Shown here piece by piece: positions 3,080 to 53,382 of a stretch of DNA of 64,000 bases (position 1 is its first letter; the number at the start of each line of letters is the position of its first letter). Source of the DNA: a virus. Its lineage: Duplodnaviria; Heunggongvirae; Uroviricota; Caudoviricetes. Both the position numbers and the translations under genes were made by a program. Where the stretch lies: IMG/VR virus record IMGVR_UViG_2937142334_000003; one strand, 5' to 3'. The notes beneath the pieces are model-generated. The model searched no databases, was not told the origin of the DNA, and saw nothing but the letters and a program-made list of their open reading frames with translations.

Positions 3080-3319
3080 TTATTATAACTACTCTTATTT
3101 TTTACAAAAAGTCGTTGACTTTATAACTTACGATGTTATAATTGAAATCGTCAAAAGGACAACGGCAATAAATACCAAGTATCAAAAATAATTTGAAAAA
3201 GGTATTGATAATTATAACATCGGAAGTTATAATAAAGCCGTAAAGTTGATTAGGACAATCACAATAAAGAGCAGTCATCGAACTAGCCTAGGTGATTAAA
3301 AATTAATCAAATTTACTTC

Positions 3320-3348
3320 TTGACAATTATAACTTACGAAGTTATAAT
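3320..3348 (+). promoter_or_regulatory. promoter P3: TTGACA - 17 nt - TATAAT with embedded operator-like palindrome
   Basis: Exact consensus hexamers at 3320..3325 and 3343..3348. Confidence 0.6.
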
Positions 3349-3443
3349 AAAAGCACAAACTTAATAAATGGATTGAAAGTGAGTTTACTTGAGTATCTAA
3401 CTTTGACTTCAAGGTCAACCGCTACAATTCAAAAAATTAAGTC

Positions 3444-3472
3444 TTGACAATTATAACATCGGAAGTTATAAT
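3444..3472 (+). promoter_or_regulatory. promoter P4: TTGACA - 17 nt - TATAAT with embedded palindrome
   Basis: Exact consensus hexamers at 3444..3449 and 3467..3472. Confidence 0.6.
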
Positions 3473-3599
3473 AAAGACACGATAAAGGAGCAAGCAATCG
3501 CAAGCCTTGAAGCGATTAAGAAATAAAAGGTTATCCTTATATAACTTACGATGTTATATAAAATGTTCAAACTAATTGGAAAGTTACCAATTCAAAAAA

Positions 3600-6673: not shown

Positions 6674-6731
6674 GAAATTTTCATAACAAAAACACTATTA
6701 AAAATAAATTCACTATTAAGAGGTAATTATC

Positions 6732-7574
6732 ATGAATACACAAACACTATTAAACAATGTAGCAACTACTACAAACAACGACGCAATTATTGTAAACGCA
6801 AAAGAATTTTTGAAAGCTCTTAGGTTCGTCACGGTTGGTGTAAGCACGAAGAAGTCCCGGCCAACACTAATGAATATTCATGTGGGTATTAATGAGAATG
6901 AATTGGTCCTTGGCGCAACGGATTCACACAAATTGACGTATTTAAAGGTGGGGGCAAGTATTCCATCTGAGTTATCTAGTAAAGAATTTTTGGTTGATGG
7001 AAAGTTTGCTAAAAACTTATCTAAGACACCGACAAAACACGGGGAATATTTACTTATTAAGCCGGAATTTAATTTTAATGGACGGTCAGTTGGTAAGGTC
7101 ACATTCATTGACGGTAACAACGAAACATTTATTGATAATCATGGCAGCGATGATTTTTACCCTGAACTAGAACGAGTAATTCCAGATCGTACTTACTTCA
7201 GTTTTGAAACACGGAAAAAAGAATTATTGCCAGTGTTAAAAGAATTGAAGAAATTTACCAATGCAAAGGATGGCAATGTTGTTCGTCTTGAAATTCAAGA
7301 CAATTCGGGAGTAGTTATTGGCGTTGATGGCAACGACAGTAGTATTCAAGAAATTAAGCAAAAGAATTTATTTATTGATGAGAAGCATATTGTAGAAAAT
7401 GACAAGGGACTTAATTTTGAAATTAATTTTAATTTGAAGTATCTAATTGAATTGGTTCAGAAATGTGATAGCACAGAATTTCTAAAGTTCTCATTTAGTG
7501 GAACATTACGACCATTTACCTTTATTCGAGAAAATGCAGGAATTGGTGAAATTTGTCCTATTCGGACATACTAA
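6732..7574 (+). CDS. DNA polymerase sliding clamp (beta/DnaN-like, short form), putative
   Basis: N-terminal RPTLMNIHVGINENELVLGATDSHKL resembles the DnaN domain-I pattern (RPIL..v.le...l.l.aTD.e..l). Confidence 0.4.
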   Translation: MNTQTLLNNVATTTNNDAIIVNAKEFLKALRFVTVGVSTKKSRPTLMNIHVGINENELVLGATDSHKLTYLKVGASIPSELSSKEFLVDGKFAKNLSKTPTKHGEYLLIKPEFNFNGRSVGKVTFIDGNNETFIDNHGSDDFYPELERVIPDRTYFSFETRKKELLPVLKELKKFTNAKDGNVVRLEIQDNSGVVIGVDGNDSSIQEIKQKNLFIDEKHIVENDKGLNFEINFNLKYLIELVQKCDSTEFLKFSFSGTLRPFTFIRENAGIGEICPIRTY

Positions 7575-8287: not shown

Positions 8288-8328
8288 AACAGATATTTTA
8301 GAAAAGGTAAGAATTGGAGGAAATTATC

Positions 8329-8631
8329 ATGATAAAAACAAAATTACGTACAGAATTAGTAAGTTTGGTAGAAACAGCATATGGCGAGGCTATCTTAACA
8401 ATGAAGCGCGGCGAAGAAGAAAAACAACTCCTTATCGCTGAATGTGGATTGTCAGACGTTGTTTACGAGTCGTCAGTGGATTATTACTTAGATAACGAGC
8501 ATTGGACGCAAGAAAAATTTGACGACTATTGGGAAAACGGCGGCGAGGATAAAGAAATTGACAACTATGTTGATGGCATTGTTGATTTTTATGACGACGA
8601 TTTGACTTGGGAAGAACTTGAAACACTGTAA
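8329..8631 (+). CDS. hypothetical acidic protein. Start at the ATG after ggaggaaattatc.
   Basis: ORF track 8314..8631. Leader duplicated at 9203..9231. Confidence 0.5.
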   Translation: MIKTKLRTELVSLVETAYGEAILTMKRGEEEKQLLIAECGLSDVVYESSVDYYLDNEHWTQEKFDDYWENGGEDKEIDNYVDGIVDFYDDDLTWEELETL

Positions 8632-8673
8632 TTTACATTGTTGATATCCGTTAATGATTTGGAGGAAATTATC

Positions 8674-8916
8674 ATGAATTATGTAGTAACTATTCAAAAT
8701 AACAAATTTACTTTTAAAAATAGCGGTTGGGATACTGAAAAAATGTGGAGTGATTTAATCAACGCATTACAATCAATGAAACTTGCGAGCGAAGTTGAAA
8801 CAGTTGAATTTTCTAAGTTCAACGAAGGTCAATTAGGATTTGACGGAGAGGTTTCTCAACTATTGGAATATATAAAAGACGAAGGCATTATCACAAGTTG
8901 GCATAAAGAAGATTAA
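8674..8916 (+). CDS. hypothetical protein. Start at the ATG after ggaggaaattatc.
   Basis: ORF track 8638..8916. Confidence 0.5.
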   Translation: MNYVVTIQNNKFTFKNSGWDTEKMWSDLINALQSMKLASEVETVEFSKFNEGQLGFDGEVSQLLEYIKDEGIITSWHKED

Positions 8917-8940: not shown

Positions 8941-9192
8941 ATGAAAATTTTAACAAGGCAAAAGGTTTGGTTGGTTAAGTCAGAATTAGGTAAAACATGG
9001 GGCGTCATTGGAGTATTTGATAATGTGCTTGCTGCTGAGAAATACGCAGAAGAAAAATATCGTAAGTGGACTGACGATGAGGAGTTTACTTGGAATCGAG
9101 GAAAAACAGCACAAGAAATTCACATTGAAACTTCAACACAATCGTTAGACGGTAAGTTGATTATTTCAGAATATCCTGTTCGGTCTAAGTAA
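8941..9192 (+). CDS. hypothetical protein, paralog B of 8030..8287
   Basis: See paralog A. Confidence 0.6.
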   Translation: MKILTRQKVWLVKSELGKTWGVIGVFDNVLAAEKYAEEKYRKWTDDEEFTWNRGKTAQEIHIETSTQSLDGKLIISEYPVRSK

Positions 9193-9231
9193 ATAAACAT
9201 TTTAGAAACGTAAGAATTGGAGGAAATTATC

Positions 9232-9411
9232 ATGAGGTTATACAACGAAGAAATTATTATTAACGGGCGGAAATTATCACCACTTGAAGTGACTGTCGTT
9301 CTTGAGGCGTTAAAGGATAGCGCAGACAATGGTGTATGTAATGACTACACTCAATATGAATTAGGAATTAGTAAAGATAAGCAAACAAAGGTCTTAGAAC
9401 AATTTGCTTAA
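9232..9411 (+). CDS. hypothetical small protein
   Basis: ORF track 9217..9411, ATG after the duplicated leader. Confidence 0.4.
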   Translation: MRLYNEEIIINGRKLSPLEVTVVLEALKDSADNGVCNDYTQYELGISKDKQTKVLEQFA

Positions 9412-9507
9412 GTGGTAAAACATGTCCTTTAGAAAAGGTAAAAGGTGGAGAAAATAATTACTTGTGATTACCTTGCGAGTGTGAGAAAATTACTATGAGG
9501 TGATAAT

Positions 9508-9846
9508 ATGGATATTACTAAGACAAGAAAACAAGGAAATGCAGTTATGGTTACCGTTCCTAAAGCATTTAATGTTAGCGAGGGAACAAAGTTACGCCCA
9601 CGATTAACAGACAAAGGAATTTTCTATGAGTTCGTTAACGAAGACGATTTTTTTGACTTTGATGAGGATATTTTGAAAGATTTGGTAGCTCAAGGATATG
9701 AGGGTCAAAAGCTTATTAGCAAGTTTAAGGAAATGAAAAAAGATATACCTACTGCAATGGATAAATTGATTGATGCAGCAGAGAAAGAAGCTGCTAATAG
9801 CAATCCGATGAGTAGAGAGGAGTTTGAGAAGGAAATTGGCCTATAG
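9508..9846 (+). CDS. AbrB/MazE (SpoVT-AbrB fold) family antitoxin-like protein
   Basis: N-terminal RKQGNAVMVTVPKAF matches the looped-hinge-helix consensus (r.vGNS..vtIPke). Confidence 0.55.
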   Translation: MDITKTRKQGNAVMVTVPKAFNVSEGTKLRPRLTDKGIFYEFVNEDDFFDFDEDILKDLVAQGYEGQKLISKFKEMKKDIPTAMDKLIDAAEKEAANSNPMSREEFEKEIGL

Positions 9847-10129
9847 TGTTATCCCTACCAAACGAGTCTTGAAATATTTGAAGAAAATAAAAAATAGGCA
9901 ACTGAAAAAGAATTTTACCGCTACAATTTATGACACGATAGCAAACGATCCATATGTAGGAAATGAAAAGCATGGCGACTTAAGTAGCTATTTTGCTTAT
10001 GGATTTAAATACGATCGTGTTGATTATCGAGTTGCTTATACTATTAATGATAATGATGAAATTGTCATCGTAGTTTTAGCAGGCCCGCACGAGAATTTTT
10101 ATAAAGAATTGAAGAAAATAGTAAACTAA
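9836..10129 (+). CDS. RelE/ParE-family type II toxin (TTG start, MAYSVIPTKRVLKYLKK...)
   Basis: YDRVDYRVAYTINDNDEIVIVVLAGPHENFY matches the RelE/ParE C-terminal pattern. Overlaps the stop of the upstream antitoxin. Confidence 0.6.
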   Translation: MAYSVIPTKRVLKYLKKIKNRQLKKNFTATIYDTIANDPYVGNEKHGDLSSYFAYGFKYDRVDYRVAYTINDNDEIVIVVLAGPHENFYKELKKIVN

Positions 10130-10208
10130 TAAGCTCGTCACTTTACAATTTGTGATGGGCTTACATTGGTAAAACACGTCTTTTACAAAAGAAATTTTAA
10201 TCGAAGTT

Positions 10209-10269
10209 AAAAGACTTCATTTGAATTATGTTTAGCGAGTAAACTAGGCAGCATTCAAATGAAGTCTTT
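10209..10269 (+). terminator. 17-bp perfect inverted repeat (aaagacttcatttgaat ... attcaaatgaagtcttt) with 27-nt loop, followed by ttattaca
   Basis: Seen in sequence. Lies between two TA-like modules. Confidence 0.4.
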
Positions 10270-10362
10270 TATTACAAGGAGGGACTTGTTATTGTAAATA
10301 GTTTGATTAAATCACCTTATTTGAGTATAATATAATAAATTATAAGTACGAGGTGAGTTAAA

Positions 10363-10653
10363 ATGGGTATTAGCGTGAAGGACAAAAAGACACAGGCAAG
10401 AGTGCAAGCTAATGTTGATGCTGATGTCAAGGATATGGCAGAAAGCGTAATTAAAGCGGTTGGACTAACACCTACAGTAATAATTAATGGTCTTTATAGA
10501 AAAATTGCGACTACAGGAAAAATTCCTTTAGATTTTTCTCTAACTTCGGAACAAATGGCAGACTTACAACTTCAAAATGCTGTAAAAAAGTTACCAGTGA
10601 AGAAGTTAAGAACGAAGAAAGAAATAGAGGACTTTTTCAACGATGAAGATTAA
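10363..10653 (+). CDS. RelB/DinJ-family antitoxin-like protein
   Basis: RVQANVDADVKDMAESVIKAVGLTPTVIINGLYRKIATTGKIPLDF resembles the DinJ/RelB pattern (r.d..lK..A...l...Gls.s..i..l...v.....lPF). Confidence 0.5.
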   Translation: MGISVKDKKTQARVQANVDADVKDMAESVIKAVGLTPTVIINGLYRKIATTGKIPLDFSLTSEQMADLQLQNAVKKLPVKKLRTKKEIEDFFNDED

Positions 10654-10966
10654 CGAGATTTATACGGCTTATGTAGCATGGCAAAACGGTGGTAAACGTC
10701 GTCCTATACTTATTATTGAAACGGAAGAAAATAATTTTTCTTTCCTAAAAGTAACAAGTAAGTATAAGAACAAATCAGAGAAAATTAAAAAGCTTTATTA
10801 TCCTTTGCAAGACTGGAGAGATGAAGGTCTAAGAAAACAATCATATATTGATACGGGAGCTTTGTTAAGTATTTCAAGAAGTGAAGTATCGTTAAATTAC
10901 GTAGGCCGGTTAACCCGAAAAGATAAAAGTGGATTGACGAGATTTATTGAAAACCGTGATTGGTAA
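10643..10966 (+). CDS. putative toxin partner (MazF/PemK-like fold suggested by GGKRRPILII and a later GL.K.S motif). Assignment weak.
   Basis: 4-nt overlap with the upstream antitoxin. Size 107 aa. Confidence 0.35.
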   Translation: MKINEIYTAYVAWQNGGKRRPILIIETEENNFSFLKVTSKYKNKSEKIKKLYYPLQDWRDEGLRKQSYIDTGALLSISRSEVSLNYVGRLTRKDKSGLTRFIENRDW

Positions 10967-10996
10967 AACGAAGGCTTTATATATTTAGGAGGATTT

Positions 10997-11170
10997 ATGG
11001 ATAGCGTAGAAAAAACGAGATTAGAAAAAGATATTATGAGTGTTTTAAAAACACCTGCTGGAAATAAAGAAAAATTACAGGTAATTATGACTATCATTAA
11101 AGGACATGACAATAACCTGTTAAATAAAGTTGGTAATCAAATTGGTGTTGTACTTGATATGAATAAATAG
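10997..11170 (+). CDS. hypothetical small protein (57 aa)
   Basis: RBS ttaggagga. Below track cutoff. Minus-strand ORF 10897..11112 considered spurious. Confidence 0.35.
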   Translation: MDSVEKTRLEKDIMSVLKTPAGNKEKLQVIMTIIKGHDNNLLNKVGNQIGVVLDMNK

Positions 11171-11272
11171 ATCGGTTAGCTTAAAGTGAATATTAATAAG
11201 GTAGCGCTGTGAAGTAATTTTCATGGTGCTTTTTGATTTTAAAATTTAATTCAATACATGGAGGAATATGAA

Positions 11273-11383
11273 ATGAATTTAATTAATCGGATCGGTGAAG
11301 AATTAGGCTTTGCCTTTAATTTTGTAAAGGTCGGGTTATTGTTAACGTGCTTATTGGTAGCAATTGCAGATTTATTAATGTAG
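11273..11383 (+). CDS. 36-aa hydrophobic peptide (MNLINRIGEELGFAFNFVKVGLLLTCLLVAIADLLM)
   Basis: RBS ggaggaatatgaa. Confidence 0.3.
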   Translation: MNLINRIGEELGFAFNFVKVGLLLTCLLVAIADLLM

Positions 11384-11395
11384 GAGGGTAGAATT

Positions 11396-11746
11396 ATGAA
11401 TAGAGGAAGATTAATTCAAGAAGAATATAATTTTTTCGAGATTATGTGTAATGAATTGGGTGTACGAGGACAATTTGCTCATGATAACAATGGTTTGGAA
11501 TATATGGTAATAATTGCACCAAACGGAGCAATTAGAGCTGTTCCATGTCGAGTAGAATGGCTAGATTTTTTAACAGATGGACTTGATAGAAATGAGGCAA
11601 TCTATGAAATACGAAAAGATTTATTAACTAAGTTCATGTCAGGTGGCTGTGGAGTGGATACATCACCAACGGAGCTAACGTATAAAGATCGAAAATTTTT
11701 CAATGCATTTCGACAAGGTGTTTTGAAATTAATGGGAAGGATTTAG
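11396..11746 (+). CDS. hypothetical protein
   Basis: RBS gtaggaggg. Confidence 0.5.
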   Translation: MNRGRLIQEEYNFFEIMCNELGVRGQFAHDNNGLEYMVIIAPNGAIRAVPCRVEWLDFLTDGLDRNEAIYEIRKDLLTKFMSGGCGVDTSPTELTYKDRKFFNAFRQGVLKLMGRI

Positions 11747-11751
11747 AGAAA

Positions 11752-11880
11752 ATGCGATTCATTATATTTGATACAGTGGTACTATTTGTAGCGTTGATTG
11801 GCAGTATTATAGAGAAACGAAAAATTGATAAGCAAGAAAGAAAAAGGGGCGGTCGTCATTCAAAACGATCGTCTTTTTAG
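11752..11880 (+). CDS. 42-aa peptide with N-terminal TM segment and basic tail
   Basis: Immediately upstream of the mazF-like gene. Possible cognate antitoxin or small membrane protein. Confidence 0.3.
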   Translation: MRFIIFDTVVLFVALIGSIIEKRKIDKQERKRGGRHSKRSSF

Positions 11881-11898
11881 ATAACGGAGGTAAATATT

Positions 11899-12245
11899 AT
11901 GAGTAAAATTTTATATAAACAGGGAGACGTTCTTTATATGGACTTTAGTCCGGCGGTTGGTTTTGAAATGGATGGAAAACATCCAGCAGTAATTATTTCA
12001 AACGATAGATACAATCGCAATTCAGGCTATTTGATGGTTGTACCAATTACATCTGGGGGACTTATTTCAATGGTTACGTTAATTTGGTTGGGTACGAAAA
12101 AATTTATGGGCGAGTAAATGCTACACAGATTCATTGTTATTCTCGTGAAAGAGTGCGTTCTTTACCAATGGATAAATTACGACTAGAAGATTTCAACAAG
12201 GTTCAAAGACAACTTAGTAAAGTAATTAATGATTTTTGTATATAG
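11899..12245 (+). pseudogene. mazF: MazF/PemK-family toxin gene interrupted by a frameshift at a G5 tract (12055..12059)
   Basis: Frame 1 gives KQGDVLYMDFSPAVGFEMDGKHPAVIISNDRYNRNSGYLMVVPITS (classic MazF N-terminus) then stops. Frame 3 continues ...ATQIHCYSRERVRSLPMDKLRLEDFNKVQRQL, matching the MazF C-terminal pattern (EQIRTIDK.RL). Confidence 0.65.
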
Positions 12246-12362
12246 CGTTTTCAGCGAAAGAAATTTTTGGTAAAATAAAAGAGTTTTAAAACTAAATGGT
12301 CAATCGACGCAATTAGCTACGCTGATTGACCATTTTTGTGTAATTAGGAGGATATTTATATT

Positions 12363-13022
12363 ATGGAGACTTTAGCAACATTATTAGAATTGGTATTTTT
12401 AGTATCGTTTATTGTAGCGATTGTTTACGGTATTAAATGGTTCAAAAATAGGAATGATAAAGAGAATGACTTATTTAAGAAAAACAAGAAACGTTTTTGG
12501 ATTAGTATTGCTGTAGTTGTGATTTCCTTTATCCTTGGAGGAATGGCTCAGAGTAGCGCTGATGACGCCCAAGAACAGGAAGCTACAGCACAACAAGAAA
12601 AGAAAGATAAATCAAACTATAAGGATGATAAAGAAGAATTCGCCAACGAATACTTTGCACTTGGTCATAAGGTAGAAACGCTCTCTTCAAAAGAAGGAGA
12701 AGAATGGAATGACGCTATAGAAAATTCCGACGAAGATTTTGATGTAGATTCTGCTATTGATACTATTCAAAATAACCACACTGATGAAATAGACGATATT
12801 GATAGTAAACTTAGCGATCTTCATGACTTAGACCAGAAGATTCAGAAAAATGATTCGGTCGACGATTCAGATAAAGAGAAATTTCATAATGCATATTTAG
12901 ACGTAAAACATTTTGCCAACCATGCTACTAATATTAGTGGAAGCTACAATGATTTTATGGACGAACATAATGATTTAGATCGAAAGGTAGCTGACCATGT
13001 AGAAGAACTTCAAGACCTTTAA
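12363..13022 (+). CDS. membrane-anchored acidic protein (N-terminal TM)
   Basis: ORF track. RBS taggagga. Confidence 0.55.
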   Translation: METLATLLELVFLVSFIVAIVYGIKWFKNRNDKENDLFKKNKKRFWISIAVVVISFILGGMAQSSADDAQEQEATAQQEKKDKSNYKDDKEEFANEYFALGHKVETLSSKEGEEWNDAIENSDEDFDVDSAIDTIQNNHTDEIDDIDSKLSDLHDLDQKIQKNDSVDDSDKEKFHNAYLDVKHFANHATNISGSYNDFMDEHNDLDRKVADHVEELQDL

Positions 13023-13778: not shown

Positions 13779-15160
13779 CTTTATAAAAACTGTATTTCTT
13801 TTCAGCGGTAGTACATTAAACCATAGTCACAAAAAGAAAGCGGTAATAATTAATGATTAAAGGAATTAAATTGCGACTATATCCCAATCAAATGCAACAA
13901 AACCTGTTATTTCAAATGTTTGGTAATACCCGCTTTGTATGGAATCAGATGTTAGCAATGGCTAAGGCAAGGTACAAAAATAATCCAAGTTCTCGATTTA
14001 TAGATGAATATGGTATGAATTACTTTCTTAAACCGTTAAAAGAAGAATATCCATTCTTGAAAAACAGTGATTCTACTAGTTTGCAAGTGACAAACCATAA
14101 CTTAGCTCAGGCCTTTAAAATGTTATTTCAACATAAAGGTGGTTATCCTCATTTTAAGAGTCGCAAGATCAGTAAGCAATCATATACGGGCCGCAATGGG
14201 TGTCGTGTAGAGGCAAAAAGGCGAATAAAATTGCCTAAAATTGGGAGCATACGTACTAGTAAGACTACGCATCTCATTGGTTGTAACATCAAGCGCTACA
14301 CCGTCACTTATGAACCGACTGGTCGTTACTATGTATCATTTCAGGTCGAAACTGAAATTAATCAGTTACCGAAAACAGGAGATGCAGTTGGTATAGATGT
14401 TGGGCTTGCGAACTTGGCGATTACTTCTGATGGTCAAAAATATGGTACTTTCGATGCCTGTTGGGTAGAAAAACAAGCACAAATATGGCAATCAAAGTTT
14501 AGTAAGCGTAAATATCGTGCGATGGTGGCAGTACGTCACTGGAATCATAATCATAAAGCCTTTCAGATGGAATTAAGTGACTATCAGAATTGGCAACGTG
14601 CGAGAATTCAAAAATCACGCTATCAAAAGAAAATAGTAGATAAACGAAAAGATTATTTGCATAAGGTAACAACAGATTTAGTTAAAAAATACGATGTGAT
14701 TGTCATTGAGGATTTGAAAATCAAGAATCTTCAAAAGAATCATCATTTGGCTAAATCAATTGCCAATGCGAGTTGGTATCAATTTAGGACCATGTTGGAA
14801 TATAAATGTGCGTGGTATGGAAAGAAGCTAATAACTGTTAAGCCAAACTATACTAGTCAAATTTGTAGTCAATGTGGCTATCACAGTGGTAAGAAACCAC
14901 TAGAAATTCGTGAGTGGATGTGTCCAAATTGTGGCACCCATCACGACCGAGATATTAATGCAGCAGTTAATATCTTGAAACAAGGATTAAAGCTAATTGG
15001 CTAGGGACTAGCCGTGGTAAAAGAATGAAGTTCTGTAAGTTAGGTATTCAGAATACTGATATAACATCCTAAATACTACTTCGTGTTCCCAGAAACATAC
15101 CGACTTTAGTTGATATGTAGTTCACAAAATCCGCATTTGTTATAAGAGATATGGAGGAAT
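13779..15160 (+). mobile_element. IS200/IS605-family tnpB-only element (IS1341-like). Boundaries approximate.
   Basis: Contains the tnpB gene. An 18-bp perfect IR (13592..13609 vs 13780..13797) brackets the upstream terminator region. tnpA absent. Confidence 0.5.
13853..15004 (+). CDS. tnpB: IS605-family TnpB (OrfB) RNA-guided nuclease-like protein
   Basis: N-terminal [28 protein letters not shown]. RuvC-like [22 protein letters not shown]. Zn finger CSQCGY..CPNCG. Confidence 0.85.
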
Positions 15161-29654: not shown

Positions 29655-30999
29655 AAATGGTAGAACATTTGGGCGTATCTATTAAATCTTTGAAAGGTGG
29701 TGAGATAAATGATCCGAACAGAAAAAGTTAGGTTGTATCCCAATACGACAATGAAACAAGCCATAGATGCCTTGTGTGACTATCGACGTTATTGCTGGAA
29801 CGAAGGCTTGGCGTTGTGGAATGATATGTATGAAGAGTCTAAGTTGATGGACAATAAGAAGTTACGACCAAATGAGTACAAGGTCCGTAATGAACTTGTT
29901 GCTAATAAACAAGATTGGCAATATCTATATTCGTCTCGTTGCCTACAATTAGCGATTTCTGATCTTGGAAAGGCTTGGGAAAACTTTTTCGACAAAGCCC
30001 AACCAGATTGGAGTATGCCAAAATTTAAGTCTAAGAAGACTCCAAGACAAGGTTTTAAGACTGACCGAGCCAAGATTGTTAATGGTAAACTCCGATTAGA
30101 TAAGCCAAGAGGGGTTAGTGGCTGGACAGATATTAGGATCTCGGGCGCTAAGCCCCTAGATGGCGAATTAAAAGTCATATCGATCTATCGTGAGAATGGC
30201 AAATACTGGGCGTCATTACCTTTTGAAACATCGGTTGATACAAAGTCTAAAACAGGTCAAAGTACAGCTATCGATGTTAACGTGGGCCACTTTAACTATC
30301 CCGATGGTCAGATTAATGTTTTGCCAGTAAAATTACAAAAGCTCTACAAGCGGATCAAGCATTACCAACGCCAATTGGCCCGTAAAAGGATTACGAATGG
30401 CAAAATGGCAACGCAAAGCAATAATTACATGAAAACGAGAGCCAAGTTGCAGCGCGATTATCGCAAGGTTGTCAACATTCAATCCGATCTTTTACAAAAG
30501 TTCACGACTAAGTTAGTCACCAATTACGACCAGATCGTTATCGAAGATCTTGCCGTCAAGAAAATGATGATGGATCACGTAGCATCGAAGGGTATGCAGC
30601 GGTCGTTGTTTAGCAAGTTTCGTCAAATTCTAACCTATAAGTGTGATTGGTACGGTAAGAAACTAATTCTGGCAAATAGATGTTATCCAAGTACACAGCG
30701 CTGTTCGCAATGTGGACATCTCAAGACTGGCGTGGACAAGATTACTCTAGCCGGCAACCAAAAACATCGTACTAAACACAATGAGTATATCTGTTACGAA
30801 TGTGGTTTGGTTATGGATAGAGATGAAAATGCCGTCATGAACTTATTACGGTTGGCGGCGGCGTAAAAAGAAAAATGCTTTTGGGGTGGGCTACACCCTT
30901 AGGCCATCAGAGTTGGTCAATGTCATTACCCTCTTGTTGGGCTATGGGAATACCGATGTTGACGGTGGTAAATAAAATTAAGAAAGGAAAAGCTATATA
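29655..30999 (+). mobile_element. IS607-family tnpB-only element, copy B
   Basis: Same left-end and right-end motifs as copy A. A ~90-bp stretch (29910..29990) is identical to 21551..21630. Confidence 0.6.
29709..30866 (+). CDS. tnpB: IS607-family TnpB
   Basis: Homolog of 21339..22499. Confidence 0.85.
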   Translation: MIRTEKVRLYPNTTMKQAIDALCDYRRYCWNEGLALWNDMYEESKLMDNKKLRPNEYKVRNELVANKQDWQYLYSSRCLQLAISDLGKAWENFFDKAQPDWSMPKFKSKKTPRQGFKTDRAKIVNGKLRLDKPRGVSGWTDIRISGAKPLDGELKVISIYRENGKYWASLPFETSVDTKSKTGQSTAIDVNVGHFNYPDGQINVLPVKLQKLYKRIKHYQRQLARKRITNGKMATQSNNYMKTRAKLQRDYRKVVNIQSDLLQKFTTKLVTNYDQIVIEDLAVKKMMMDHVASKGMQRSLFSKFRQILTYKCDWYGKKLILANRCYPSTQRCSQCGHLKTGVDKITLAGNQKHRTKHNEYICYECGLVMDRDENAVMNLLRLAAA

Positions 31000-49619: not shown

Positions 49620-49775
49620 TGTATTACACGTTAATTGGTCGCATTAAAACAAGAATTTTAATGACTAGTTATAGCATGAAAGACTCATGAATACCTCACT
49701 GAGTATTCACTGACTACTCAATTCCCCTCTTTCATGTTATAATATAGATACACAAAAAGCAGGCCCGTTAAAAAG

Positions 49776-50012
49776 ACGGTGGCCATGTTACAGATTAACT
49801 AATAAAAGATCGTCCGTAAACCTGCCAAAGTTAGTAGGACGGTTTTTTATTATGCACAGAATGTGAAAATAAAGGTTAGCAATGCGATAATAAATGTCGC
49901 AAAGGCCAACATTAACATAAGTGCTTGGTAAGCGCTCATGTGCCGATAATCCTTTCATCATGGTGAAGTCCATATGAACCACCTCCAGTCAGGAATCGGC
50001 CACCGTCCTTAA
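49776..50012. other. 13-bp perfect inverted repeats (aaggacggtggcc / ggccaccgtcctt) bracketing a 225-bp segment with a small minus-strand ORF and an internal hairpin
   Basis: Seen in sequence. Confidence 0.45.
49788..49975 (-). CDS. hypothetical 62-aa Cys-containing protein. Start at the ATG after ggaggtgg.
   Basis: ORF track 49788..49982. Confidence 0.3.
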
Positions 50013-50286: not shown

Positions 50287-53200
50287 TTATTTTTTAAGTA
50301 AACCTACAGTCGCAGTAAATCTATCTTGTTGGGATATATCATCTCCAAAAAGGCCATATAGTCTATCAACAAGTTGATCATTATTTTTGTGTGCATCATT
50401 TAATTTTTCTGGTAAAGCAGAATTAGATGCATACATTTGATATATAGAAATATCATTTTTCATAAGGTTTTCGCGTTCATTGATTATATTCTTTGCAGAC
50501 TCTTCCAGAAGTAATTTGTCTTTATCAGACAACTCAGGAAGTGGGAATTTATAATAAACAGTTTCCGTAGAATACCTAATGCCATTTCCAAGACTTCCAC
50601 TAATAATTTGAGTCCAGGCATAATGTAATCTGCTTTGCAAAATAGCAAATAACCAAAGTGGAGCGTCAAAAATCTGGTAAACTTGATCACTAACTATTAC
50701 GTTATCCGATATATAACGCATGGGTACAATCATTCTCTTACTGGTTGTATTTCTAGGTATTGCAAGGCTAGATTTATGTCTGTATCTATCTCTCTTATAA
50801 GTTCCAGGTGTTTTAGAAAGTTTTCTATCTTCTTTTGATACGGTCTGTCTAAAGATTGATATATTCTTTAGTCTGTCCTGAATGAAAATTGGTAATTTAT
50901 TAATATCGCTATCCTTCGGAATATACATTTCATAACTTTGAGATGTATTTTGCTTAAGTAGCTCTTGACCTCCGTAAAATGGATGAAAATATTTTGCGCT
51001 TTCAGGATCACTATCGATTAGCTCGTCATATTTAGACTTTGTAATTCTGTAATTCCCATCATCAAGGAAGACACTTCCAAGTTCGGCTAACGGTAATTCT
51101 GTATTCTTTGACTGTTTAGATAAGTTAATCCAGTCACCCTCAACTAAATATTCATTAATATTTGATACAAGACGAATATTTTGGTTTTCATCAACCAATC
51201 TTTTATTCTGATGCCCGAGTAGAGCTCCTTTTTTATTGAAACCTATGATAACTACGAATACCTGTGCACCGTTATTATCCCATCTGAATGTCTGGTATGC
51301 AAAATCTATTTCTAGTTTGTGTCCCGTTAGGAGTTTCTCAAGATTTAGTGCCTGCACACCTTGCGCTATAGAATTAGAGGACACAAAGCCAACTTTTAGA
51401 TTTCTATTGAATTCGGTCGCTTTTGCAGCTTTCATAAACCAACCAAACACGAAATCCATATTATTTAATCTTTTTAACGCAGATTTTGGGAAATAAGTTG
51501 ACAGACGTGGATGTTCGAATTTACCCTTCTTCGTTTTCCCGCCTTTAAATGGTGGGTTTCCTAAAATATAATTTAAGGAACTTAAATCAACTACATTATT
51601 CCAGTTTAGTTTTAGTGCATCACCCTGAATAATATTCGCTGATTTATGGAGTGGTATACGGACAAAAGGAACACCAGATACGACAGTTTCAGAAAATTCC
51701 TGGTTCATAATATGATCCATCATCCACATACCTGCTCTAGCTATATCTATAGGGTATCGATTGTATTTGGCCTCACCTTTTTCTGATTCATATGGAATAC
51801 CGAGTTCAATACCACTAAACTGATTGACTTCAACCCCAATAAGCGGCTGCCAGTTCCGTGAGTTTTTATCTGAAGATAGATTGCCATATCGTGTAAACCC
51901 AAGTGTAGTAACATCGTTTAGGCCAAAACCGATTTCTGCATTACTTTGGTTGGTGCTAATCAATATTTCTGATACAACTTGATGTTCTAATCTTCTTAAT
52001 TCCCTATAGGCAAGGATTAAAAAGTTTCCAGAACCACAAGCAGGATCAAGAAAAGTAAGTGTTGATAATTTTCTCTTAAATGCGAGTAATTTGTTCGTAA
52101 CGCTTGCTTTCGATTTCTTTATTTTCTCGAATTCTTCTCTCAGATCATCCATAAATAGGTTGTTTATTACCTTCAAGATATTTTCTTCGCTTGTGTAATG
52201 CGCCCCTATTTCATGTCTAGTTCCTTTATCCATTGCACCTTCATACATTGATCCGAAAACTATTGGGTTCACCTTAGACCAATCATCTTTAGATATATTA
52301 TAAAGGTCATCAACTAATTGATCATCCAATGGTTTTACATAAAGGCTAAAGGATTCCTTTTCAGCACCTTCGAAGAGTCCTCCGTCGATATAAGAAACTC
52401 CGGGAGCCAATCTAGCTCTTAATTCGTTATCTTCAGTGTCAACTGCACCGAAAAAGCGCTTGAGTTTTTCTAAACGTAAAGGCGCCTCTATCTCTTTCAG
52501 CCCATGTAAAAAGTCAGTGAAGATATTTTGCTTGTTAAATATTTGAGTGTCATCAGCGAACATTAGGAACGCTAATCGAACAATCATTTTGTCTGCTTGT
52601 TCCTGCGTAAAGCCTAAAGAAATAAGCTTACTATGGATTTGTCCCATTTTTGTTGCTTTATCAGCAGAGATTCTTAAACCTAATTCACGCTTCTTTGTGA
52701 CCTCTTTTTTCAGATCTACAATAGGAGAGATCTCTTTATCGTCTAGTTTTGGAATGATATTTTGAGGCGCTAATAGATAAAATAACTTTTCTAAATTATC
52801 ACCAGAAGTCAGTTTCTCTAAGTTTATAGAAAAATAGTCTAGTCGGTTTCCAAGATAAACTCTTAATTCAACAAAGTTAGTTACGATTTCAAAACGTTGT
52901 TGATTATCTGGATTGCGAAAACGGGAGGCGTAATCAAAAGCTTGATCTATTCCTTTACCACGATCATGCTGGCCTCTTTTACCAAAGCCATAAGTAGAAT
53001 CTTCTACTTCAATAAAACCAACGGGATATATATCGTTAGACTTGTTCGAATCTAGATCCTCCACATTGAATAATCCTAAAATACCATCTGGAATTTTTCC
53101 CGTCTGATCACTATATTCTGTAGCAAACGTTACTGTATCTGATTTTCTAGAGCTTGAATCGGTTTTTGTATAGCCCAGTATATCCACAAATAGATTGCGT

Positions 53201-53382
53201 AAAAAGTCAGGTCGGTGTTGATTTTCCTTCCATTTATAAACCTCATCACCATGAAAAGAGTTAACTAGACGCTTGGCTGCTTCATACTTTTCTTTTGTTA
53301 TCAGTGCCTTGGTATTTTGGGCAGCCATATCGTTTCGTAAATCAACGTCCGAAATGATAGTTCCATGATTAATTATACTCAT
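50287..53382 (-). CDS. gamma-class N6-adenine DNA methyltransferase fused to large N- and C-terminal domains. Candidate Type IIL/IIG (MmeI-like) restriction-modification enzyme or BREX PglX-like methyltransferase.
   Basis: FLDPACGSGNFL (motif I) and GNPPF (motif IV) in the middle of a 1031-aa protein. Possible PD..EVE nuclease-like motif near the N-terminus. Confidence 0.6.
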   Translation of the reverse strand: MSIINHGTIISDVDLRNDMAAQNTKALITKEKYEAAKRLVNSFHGDEVYKWKENQHRPDFLRNLFVDILGYTKTDSSSRKSDTVTFATEYSDQTGKIPDGILGLFNVEDLDSNKSNDIYPVGFIEVEDSTYGFGKRGQHDRGKGIDQAFDYASRFRNPDNQQRFEIVTNFVELRVYLGNRLDYFSINLEKLTSGDNLEKLFYLLAPQNIIPKLDDKEISPIVDLKKEVTKKRELGLRISADKATKMGQIHSKLISLGFTQEQADKMIVRLAFLMFADDTQIFNKQNIFTDFLHGLKEIEAPLRLEKLKRFFGAVDTEDNELRARLAPGVSYIDGGLFEGAEKESFSLYVKPLDDQLVDDLYNISKDDWSKVNPIVFGSMYEGAMDKGTRHEIGAHYTSEENILKVINNLFMDDLREEFEKIKKSKASVTNKLLAFKRKLSTLTFLDPACGSGNFLILAYRELRRLEHQVVSEILISTNQSNAEIGFGLNDVTTLGFTRYGNLSSDKNSRNWQPLIGVEVNQFSGIELGIPYESEKGEAKYNRYPIDIARAGMWMMDHIMNQEFSETVVSGVPFVRIPLHKSANIIQGDALKLNWNNVVDLSSLNYILGNPPFKGGKTKKGKFEHPRLSTYFPKSALKRLNNMDFVFGWFMKAAKATEFNRNLKVGFVSSNSIAQGVQALNLEKLLTGHKLEIDFAYQTFRWDNNGAQVFVVIIGFNKKGALLGHQNKRLVDENQNIRLVSNINEYLVEGDWINLSKQSKNTELPLAELGSVFLDDGNYRITKSKYDELIDSDPESAKYFHPFYGGQELLKQNTSQSYEMYIPKDSDINKLPIFIQDRLKNISIFRQTVSKEDRKLSKTPGTYKRDRYRHKSSLAIPRNTTSKRMIVPMRYISDNVIVSDQVYQIFDAPLWLFAILQSRLHYAWTQIISGSLGNGIRYSTETVYYKFPLPELSDKDKLLLEESAKNIINERENLMKNDISIYQMYASNSALPEKLNDAHKNNDQLVDRLYGLFGDDISQQDRFTATVGLLKK

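Follow-up and report, generated by a model that had tools for sequence, protein, structure and literature searches.

What are the toxin-antitoxin (TA)-like genes that crowd positions 9508-12245 of the virus record IMGVR_UViG_2937142334_000003, what kind of element carries them, and what remains of the one toxin among them whose reading frame is broken? We examined this region and its surroundings in a window of 64,000 nucleotides (nt), the whole stretch of DNA analysed, and compared it with related loci in sequence collections, which are designated here by L-numbers (L001, L007, L016 etc.). The locus is probably a hotspot of TA cassettes, located in the small-gene arm of a large prophage that Limosilactobacillus reuteri carries outside its chromosome, with three units that would be transcribed independently. 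Most of the region is ordinary, a new instance of known things; its sole unusual point is a MazF toxin that appears to be partnered by a protein of 116 amino acids (aa), termed G below, and not by MazE.

Since a megablast search of a phage collection returned no match at about 85% identity or above for the region, the element was identified from plasmid records. The whole window is 86-94% identical, in a mosaic fashion, to L. reuteri plasmid records of ~50-140 kb that form one replicon cluster, and the same locus is present on a 117-kb IMG/VR contig. Records of this plasmid family are typically ~130 kb and encode RepA/ParM in addition to terminase, tape measure and holin. In NZ_CP065541.1 (133 kb), the closest complete record, RepA, RepC and ParM share a replicon with a terminase, a 9-kb tape-measure gene, a tail specificity protein, a holin and XhlA, which is the combination of replication/partition genes with structural, packaging and lysis genes that defines a phage-plasmid. 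One 129-kb relative, NZ_CP102426.1, was deposited as linear, and the other relatives are circular. Proteins encoded in the window include a sliding-clamp-like protein, an AAA_24 ATPase, a metallophosphoesterase, DnaB-like and RecD2-like helicases, an HNH endonuclease, a deoxynucleoside kinase, PnuC, integrases, three TnpB copies and an MmeI-like enzyme. Since the relatives combine RepA/ParM with phage genes, the element is best described, by homology to them, as a phage-plasmid. It weighs against this label that the phage structural genes are known from the relatives; the 64-kb window holds replication-type genes and no structural ones. The phage origin assumed in a preliminary description of this DNA thus stands as far as the phage genes of the relatives go, but a plain phage does not fit relatives that also carry RepA/ParM.

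All genes of the locus discussed here lie on the + strand. The first two, A and B, form what we believe with good confidence to be an intact, overlapping and ordinary type II pair (module 1). The predicted antitoxin A (9508-9846; 112 aa, isoelectric point (pI) 4.85) consists of a MazE/AbrB-like N-terminal domain and an acidic C-terminal part. Residues 5-38 match the NCBIfam model MazE_PemI (NF047400) with an E-value of 7.9e-9 and 35 bits, which is below the 50-bit cutoff and covers the N-terminal half of the model only. A also matches PHROG 9969, a "transcriptional regulator" (3e-6), and its Lactobacillaceae family bears the NCBI name "toxin-antitoxin system". A single-sequence phmmer search of the PDB gave no significant match, and a profile of the A family gave weak, non-significant matches (E 0.17-0.4) to "addiction module antidote" chains at the same motif. 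Assignment of A as a MazE/AbrB-type antitoxin is likely but not proven.

Gene B overlaps the end of A, beginning at one of two candidate TTG codons, 9824 (101 aa) or 9836 (97 aa), and ending at 10129; gene callers choose the equivalent of 9836 in the relatives. By a family match above the curated threshold, B clearly belongs to the RelE/ParE superfamily of toxins: it matches PF15781 (ParE-like_toxin) at 4e-25 and 88 bits (cutoff 28), PF05016 at 2e-6 and 28.7 bits (cutoff 23), TIGR02385 (RelE_StbE) at 2e-5 and the PHROG RelE-like toxin at 3.5e-9, and YoeB (7v5y, 2e-6) is its nearest solved relative in the PDB. A protein identical to A occurs in 33 collection blocks, with a ParE-like gene downstream of it in all six of the loci listed; the pair is kept in L019-L021, L023, L027 and L029-L034, and B is 100% identical to the intact copies in L029 and L032. 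At another locus, L035 (3185-3394), a C-terminal remnant of A survives without B.

Module 2 begins with a promoter-like site at 10303-10331 (TTGATT-17-TATAAT), found by a consensus scan and agreeing with the consensus at 10 of 12 positions, around which lie the inverted repeats 10307-10317 and 10351-10361. The next gene, C (10363-10653, 96 aa), encodes a predicted RelB/DinJ-type antitoxin that matches PF04221 (RelB) at 2.6e-7 and 30.9 bits, over the cutoff of 22.4, TIGR02384 at 1e-11 and 44.9 bits, marginally under the cutoff of 45.65, and the solved DinJ 4q2u at 2.5e-3. It is followed, with an 11-nt overlap, by D (10643-10966, 107 aa), which scores 21.7 bits against PF02452 (cutoff 23.1) and matches the PHROG "MazF-like growth inhibitor" at 6.5e-10; PF02452 is matched by 23 of 31 members of the D family (E<=0.01). 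Because neither single-sequence phmmer nor a D-family profile gave a significant match in the PDB, the fold of D was examined by structure prediction. An AlphaFold model with a predicted local distance difference test score (pLDDT) of 87.4 retrieved only MazF/PemK structures among the top 50 Foldseek matches in the PDB (probability 1.00, template modelling (TM) scores 0.62-0.73), although solved MazF proteins share only 11-20% identity with D. D is thus, by its predicted fold and the PF02452 matches of its family, a divergent MazF-fold protein, and C and D quite probably form an intact overlapping type II pair in which a RelB/DinJ antitoxin would be matched with a divergent MazF-fold endoribonuclease.

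The pair recurs elsewhere: C is 99% identical to the copies in L023-L025, and a protein identical to D is found in 63 collection blocks, with a RelB gene preceding it in each of the six loci listed. A 57-aa open reading frame (ORF), E (10997-11170), which has no family match in Pfam, NCBIfam, PHROG or PADLOC, travels with C-D in some contexts; an identical E follows D in the Rep3-plasmid contigs L025 and L026, and none follows the RelB/PemK pair of pLr03. C-D-E also adjoins a Rep3 replication gene, i.e. a different plasmid backbone. Copies of modules 1 and 2 with 99-100% identity recur in many assemblies, and both modules are, as judged from these comparisons, mobile and self-contained cassettes.

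Are these genes part of one operon? Downstream of B lies a hairpin terminator (10208-10271) with a 19+7 bp stem followed by UUUUAUU (-33.9 kcal/mol, z -5.65), and terminator-like hairpins close unit 2 (11203-11230, 12-bp stem and T-run) and unit 3 (12310-12328, 8-bp stem and T-run). A strong terminator after B, a near-consensus promoter before C, and hairpins after E and MazF together argue that the locus is not one operon but three transcription units, each with its own promoter-like site and predicted terminator. An Rfam scan of 9000-13000 found no RNA family match. The terminator after B sits within a conserved element of ~100 bp (10170-10274) that is 94-97% identical in L001-L015 and is found at a cassette boundary in all relatives, each time beside a different cassette, which makes it a possible recombination landmark. 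In relatives, the slot upstream of unit 3 accommodates other TA families, five or more of them: Phd/YoeB, a Gp49(HigB)-like toxin with a helix-turn-helix (HigA-like) partner, AbrB-like with Doc/Fic, RelB with MazF-like, MazE-like/ParE-like, or combinations of these. Six TA families occur in about a dozen arrangements around the conserved hairpin element. The cassettes would be exchanged through recombination at such conserved boundaries.

Much of the preliminary description agrees with these results. Every ORF that it named is present where it was placed, including the TTG start of B at 9836; its three adjacent TA-type units are borne out by family matches and gene layout, and its family calls for A, B, C, D and MazF were essentially right, as seen from PF15781, PF04221, PF02452, NCBIfam, PHROG and the fold of D. 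In Pfam the agreement is partial: B, C and the repaired MazF exceed their cutoffs, while D falls just short and A has no match. Two points of gene organisation have to be revised. The single phage early operon gives way to the three units, with their separate promoter-like sites and terminators, and the third module, read as small peptides plus MazF, in fact has the order F-G-H-MazF, the 116-aa gene G (11396-11746) having been overlooked.

Unit 3 is where the locus departs from known arrangements. Its four genes are separated by gaps of 12, 5 and 18 nt. F (11258-11383) encodes a small hydrophobic peptide of 41 aa (36 aa if begun at the ATG at 11273) without a family match; an ORF for it is conserved, preceding G in L007, L009, L010, L016, L029 and L035. 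G, an acidic alpha/beta protein, is a candidate non-canonical antitoxin. Between G and MazF lies H (11752-11880), a peptide of 42 aa (pI 11.4) that is hydrophobic at its N-terminus and has the basic tail GGRHSKRSSF, and this tail is kept between alleles that are only 33-38% identical. An H-like ORF precedes MazF in L019 and, as read from intergenic sequence, also in L027; there is no H in L016, L022 and L038. Directly upstream of mazF we found no MazE-type gene, neither AbrB nor ribbon-helix-helix, so that the unit is not a canonical mazEF, and neither G nor H matches any antitoxin model in Pfam, NCBIfam, PHROG or PADLOC.

The toxin gene of this unit is predicted to be a MazF/PemK pseudogene (11899-12245), broken at the GGGGG tract at 12055-12059. 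Its first frame (11899-12117) encodes 72 aa with a missense tail, and the C-terminal part lies in the -1 frame (12057-12245). Insertion of one base yields a protein of 115 aa that matches PF02452 at 6e-18 and 65.4 bits over profile positions 1-108 of 109, and MazF entries of the PDB at 1e-10 to 1e-7. Alignment with three plasmid homologues shows exactly one base to be missing, at 12056/12057. The gene encodes an intact 115-aa MazF in all 14 related loci that were translated and in all 7 complete L. reuteri plasmids that carry it. In the nearest alleles (L006-L008, L011, L014 and L015), whose product equals that of the window over the first 54 residues, the site reads TCT GGT GGG ACT, against TCTGGGGGACT in the window. 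A change from GGTGGG to GGGGG implies that a single T was lost and that the run of five Gs was newly created, not that a longer run was shortened. The break noted in the preliminary description is thus real in that one base is missing relative to intact relatives, and a pseudogene is the best supported of the options it had offered. Its picture of a slippery run does not apply to a deleted T in a tract that is not conserved, and a run of four Gs would not restore the frame, as it had supposed; only six Gs or GGNGGG would.

Over 11402-12138 the window differs from the L007 allele by the T deletion and one substitution (at 11820, leaving the H protein unchanged), which implies that the deletion is either recent or an error. 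At about 12139 mazF switches from an L007-like to an FN041-like allele, and at ~12358 the sequence becomes YLR001-like; with a switch inside its 3' third, the mazF of the window is also a recombinant. A frameshift arising at the recombination junction was considered and rejected, the junction (~12130-12139) being roughly 75 nt downstream of the deletion. Relatives have lesions of their own in this unit: in L023 (5531-6288) an in-frame deletion has removed 21 aa from MazF, and the H-like peptide is joined to the ORF upstream; L029 (5459-5803) lacks MazF entirely, and its G has a changed 3' end beside an integrase gene. Comparison of these alleles indicates independent decay of the MazF toxin of unit 3 among the relatives.

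We consider it likely that the frame break is a genuine mutation. The chief competing explanation is a sequencing or assembly error, in which case the real element would have an intact 115-aa MazF and three live modules. The single-base deletion is indeed seen in no other assembly, and the stretch in which it falls hardly differs otherwise from an intact allele. The result is a short homopolymer of Gs, the kind of run whose length some platforms misjudge, and neither MazF fragment is on record as an exact protein in the protein collection. Exact-pattern scans of genome, metagenome and viral contig collections also failed to retrieve the deletion allele, but these scans are powerless with regard to its frequency because even the intact allele is absent from those collections (the viral scan covered both alleles). 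A tblastn comparison of the window with every ORF of 70 aa or more in five related loci identified MazF as the sole gene split in two frames, an outcome that speaks against an indel-prone assembly; the window contains 14 G-runs and 5 C-runs of at least five bases. The missing base is moreover a T between Gs in the nearest allele and not the contraction of an existing homopolymer, and natural losses of MazF exist independently in relatives. An error is therefore unlikely, although it deserves to be kept in mind. Far less probable still, to the point of being nearly negligible, is a programmed slippery site, at which phase variation, transcriptional slippage or -1 ribosomal frameshifting would provide full-length MazF at a low level. 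A -1 shift on GGG-GGA would restore exactly the wild-type sequence ...SGGTYF..., but the 14 related alleles read GGT GGG, GGC GGA, GGA GGG or GGT GGA at this site, with a G-run in none of them, which counts against a contingency (phase-variable) locus such as the preliminary description had also envisaged. For slippage a run of five Gs is also short, the heptamer T-GGG-GGA does not follow the X-XXY-YYZ pattern, and an intact gene in a single frame is the rule in all relatives. With a genuine mutation preferred, the deletion in this copy would have knocked out the toxin and left the upstream genes untouched, with G and H as orphans.

If MazE is lacking, which protein would neutralise this MazF where the toxin is intact? 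The genomic company of G makes it the leading candidate. The exact G protein occurs in 28 collection blocks and lies upstream of an intact 115-aa PemK gene in 10 of the 10 loci listed. In PLSDB (72,556 records), G and MazF co-occur in exactly the same 7 plasmids. Homologues of G that are 24-59% identical also lie just upstream of a PemK gene in five further lineages, and G is upstream of this MazF clade in 7 of the 7 lineages examined. In L022 and L038, G lies directly upstream of MazF with gaps of 42 and 13 nt and no H, i.e. in the antitoxin position. Members of the G family are acidic (pI 4.4-5.8), and MazF is basic (pI about 9). Outside L. reuteri the closest MazF is found on Enterococcus hirae plasmids (50% identity), where an overlapping gene for a 75-aa AbrB-type MazE lies upstream of it; since the E. 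hirae relative has a canonical MazE and the L. reuteri clade has none, MazE appears to have been replaced in the L. reuteri lineage. G itself appears to represent a rare, previously undescribed family. It has no match in Pfam, NCBIfam, PHROGs or PADLOC, and nothing significant was found in the PDB by single-sequence phmmer. A word-indexed protein search recovered two clusters of G, and an exhaustive HMMER search was needed to find all nine among 1.84 billion representative proteins. The predicted fold is confident and has no convincing match among solved or viral predicted structures.

On conserved gene order, we lean slightly towards G being the MazF-neutralising partner in place of MazE. Whether G, alone or with the membrane peptide H, constitutes an undescribed class of such partners, and the frameshifted copy a natural "orphan antitoxin" state, we regard as evenly poised. 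Several observations weigh against G in this role. The two types of G, only 26-28% identical, adjoin MazF alleles that are 86-94% identical, and from an antitoxin of tight specificity one would not expect such a lack of co-variation. The G-H block recombines independently of MazF, with a boundary between H and MazF; the G and MazF genes of L016 are set apart by a Phd-like/Doc pair and a terminator-like hairpin; in L027 a different protein of 95 aa occupies the position of G; and searches of Pfam, NCBIfam and structures found no recognisable DNA-binding domain in G. The same observations on co-variation, recombination, L016 and L027 would fit G and H being unrelated cargo or a unit of their own, with MazF solitary and controlled otherwise, for instance by repression of its transcription in the prophage state or by an antitoxin elsewhere; Myxococcus provides a documented case of a solitary MazF that has a surrogate antitoxin (PMC4803016). 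Pfam searches of the 95-aa protein of L027 and of a 98-aa upstream protein in L019 gave only weak helix-turn-helix hints. Against this reading, genes of the G family, down to 24% identity, stand beside PemK in every lineage with retrievable context, two of these lineages have G immediately upstream of MazF without H, the two genes share the same 7 complete plasmids, and 11396-11899 contains no further ORF of 30 aa or more that would be a candidate antitoxin. We therefore view the cargo explanation as a serious possibility, yet one that we would not favour.

What would the cassettes do for the element? Most likely they are addiction modules of a plasmid-prophage, one of them recently inactivated, a reading drawn from what is understood of type II systems and of phage-plasmids, which commonly rely on TA systems for persistence (PMC11652158). 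The toxin from each cassette would be stable and the antitoxin labile, so that a cell that lost the element would be killed or arrested. Such post-segregational killing would stabilise the plasmid-borne prophage; the cassettes may have a secondary role in competition between related elements, and the stacking of several unrelated cassettes would make the element hard to lose and hard to displace. The cassettes could instead serve mainly in phage warfare, as decoys against the abortive-infection toxins of the host, in superinfection exclusion or in abortive infection. Their position is suggestive, within a same-strand array of small genes that follows a bank of repressor-type promoters and that begins with the anti-restriction gene ArdA in relatives; ArdA is, however, absent from the window. 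Following the anti-addiction model (PMC2654758), it is conceivable that orphan G and H would neutralise related MazF toxins, but modules 1 and 2 are complete pairs of toxin and antitoxin with their own promoters and terminators and not lone antitoxins, C-D-E is shared with an ordinary Rep3 plasmid, and none of 10 proteins matched a PADLOC defence model. Nothing specific supports the decoy or superinfection roles that had been proposed for the locus, and in the context of a phage-plasmid addiction is the more economical role. A main function in warfare is accordingly improbable, although it and addiction are not mutually exclusive. More speculatively, the orphan partner in this copy could still protect against the MazF of related elements, following the anti-addiction idea.

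The surroundings of the locus contain further features. The promoter bank, at 3115-3573, comprises four near-consensus promoters, TTGAC(T/A)-17-TATAAT, at 3115-3142, 3205-3233, 3320-3348 and 3444-3472, each with the palindrome TTATAAC-N7-GTTATAA between its hexamers, and a fifth copy of the palindrome lies at 3539-3560. These look like repressor-controlled early promoters heading the long + strand array of small genes. Within the array, GAATTGGAGGAAATTATCATGA is repeated as an intergenic ribosome-binding block at 8311-8332, 8656-8677 and 9214-9235, and also at 6714 and 8923. The block adds the same in-frame extension, "MEEIIM", to many small ORFs, and its repeats could promote the shuffling of small genes. 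The array also encodes, at 6732-7574, the sliding-clamp-like protein (280 aa), which has weak matches to all three domains of the DNA polymerase III beta subunit and is conserved in relatives. The three TnpB genes, of the IS605 type (Cas12f-like), are at 13853-15004, 29709-30866 and 60168-61118, and the first of these is absent at that position in the closest relative. At ~49640-49990 the window matches a short gene labelled "putative holin-like toxin" on several L. reuteri plasmids, which may be an additional small-toxin addiction locus. The MmeI-family restriction-modification enzyme (50287-53382, - strand) is a protein of 1031 aa with methyltransferase, target-recognition, helicase-spacer and C-terminal domains.

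Taken by themselves, modules 1 and 2 are routine, as TA pairs on a plasmid-borne prophage, and so is the broken toxin, as an instance of toxin decay. The locus as a whole offers a clear and well-bounded example of TA cassette exchange, in a poorly studied phage-plasmid family from Lactobacillaceae of food, gut and probiotic strains, and bears on the persistence of such elements and the competition between them. G-(H)-MazF is a modestly novel lead, as a candidate new kind of MazF antitoxin. If G does neutralise MazF, one more fold would join the "mix-and-match" repertoire of type II antitoxins, and a compact toxin/antidote pair might become available for genetic tools in lactobacilli.

Among known systems, the closest parallel in setting is Phd/Doc of the phage-plasmid P1, which, like the cassettes described here, is a type II pair on an extrachromosomal prophage with partition genes (PMC11652158). 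L. reuteri relatives even carry an AbrB-like/Doc pair in the slot upstream of unit 3. The present element differs in stacking several unrelated cassettes that are exchanged among relatives, in the stabilising role being predicted, and in belonging to a Lactobacillaceae family without a match in the phage collection at the identity level given above.

PrlF/YhaV-type pairs combine an AbrB-fold antitoxin with a toxin of the RelE/ParE superfamily. Module 1 resembles them in its MazE/AbrB-like N-terminal domain, its RelE/ParE-superfamily toxin and its overlapping genes, but B belongs to PF15781 and is closest in the PDB to YoeB, not YhaV, and A, which falls under the MazE_PemI cutoff, has a long and distinct C-terminal half. 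The RelB/DinJ family and the MazE of Bacillus subtilis both have the ribbon-helix-helix fold. Module 2 has in common with the B. subtilis MazE-MazF pair (EndoAI/EndoA, PDB 4ME7) a predicted MazF-fold toxin with an upstream overlapping antitoxin, and the Foldseek matches of D include 4me7 and 4mdx; in contrast to that pair, C is of the RelB/DinJ family and no homologue of MazE, and D lies just under the Pfam cutoff.

For unit 3 two comparisons are instructive. In the mazEF/pemIK of E. hirae plasmids, the toxin is, like the repaired MazF of unit 3, a full-length member of the PemK/MazF family, but in the L. reuteri clade F, G and H stand in the place of MazE, and the toxin in the window is frame-shifted. 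In Myxococcus xanthus, the solitary MazF-mx was reported to be neutralised by an unrelated protein, MrpC (PMC4803016), and the MazF of unit 3 is likewise without a MazE homologue. Whereas MrpC is a distant chromosomal transcription factor whose role is disputed, G is encoded in the same predicted operon as its MazF and is conserved together with the toxin.

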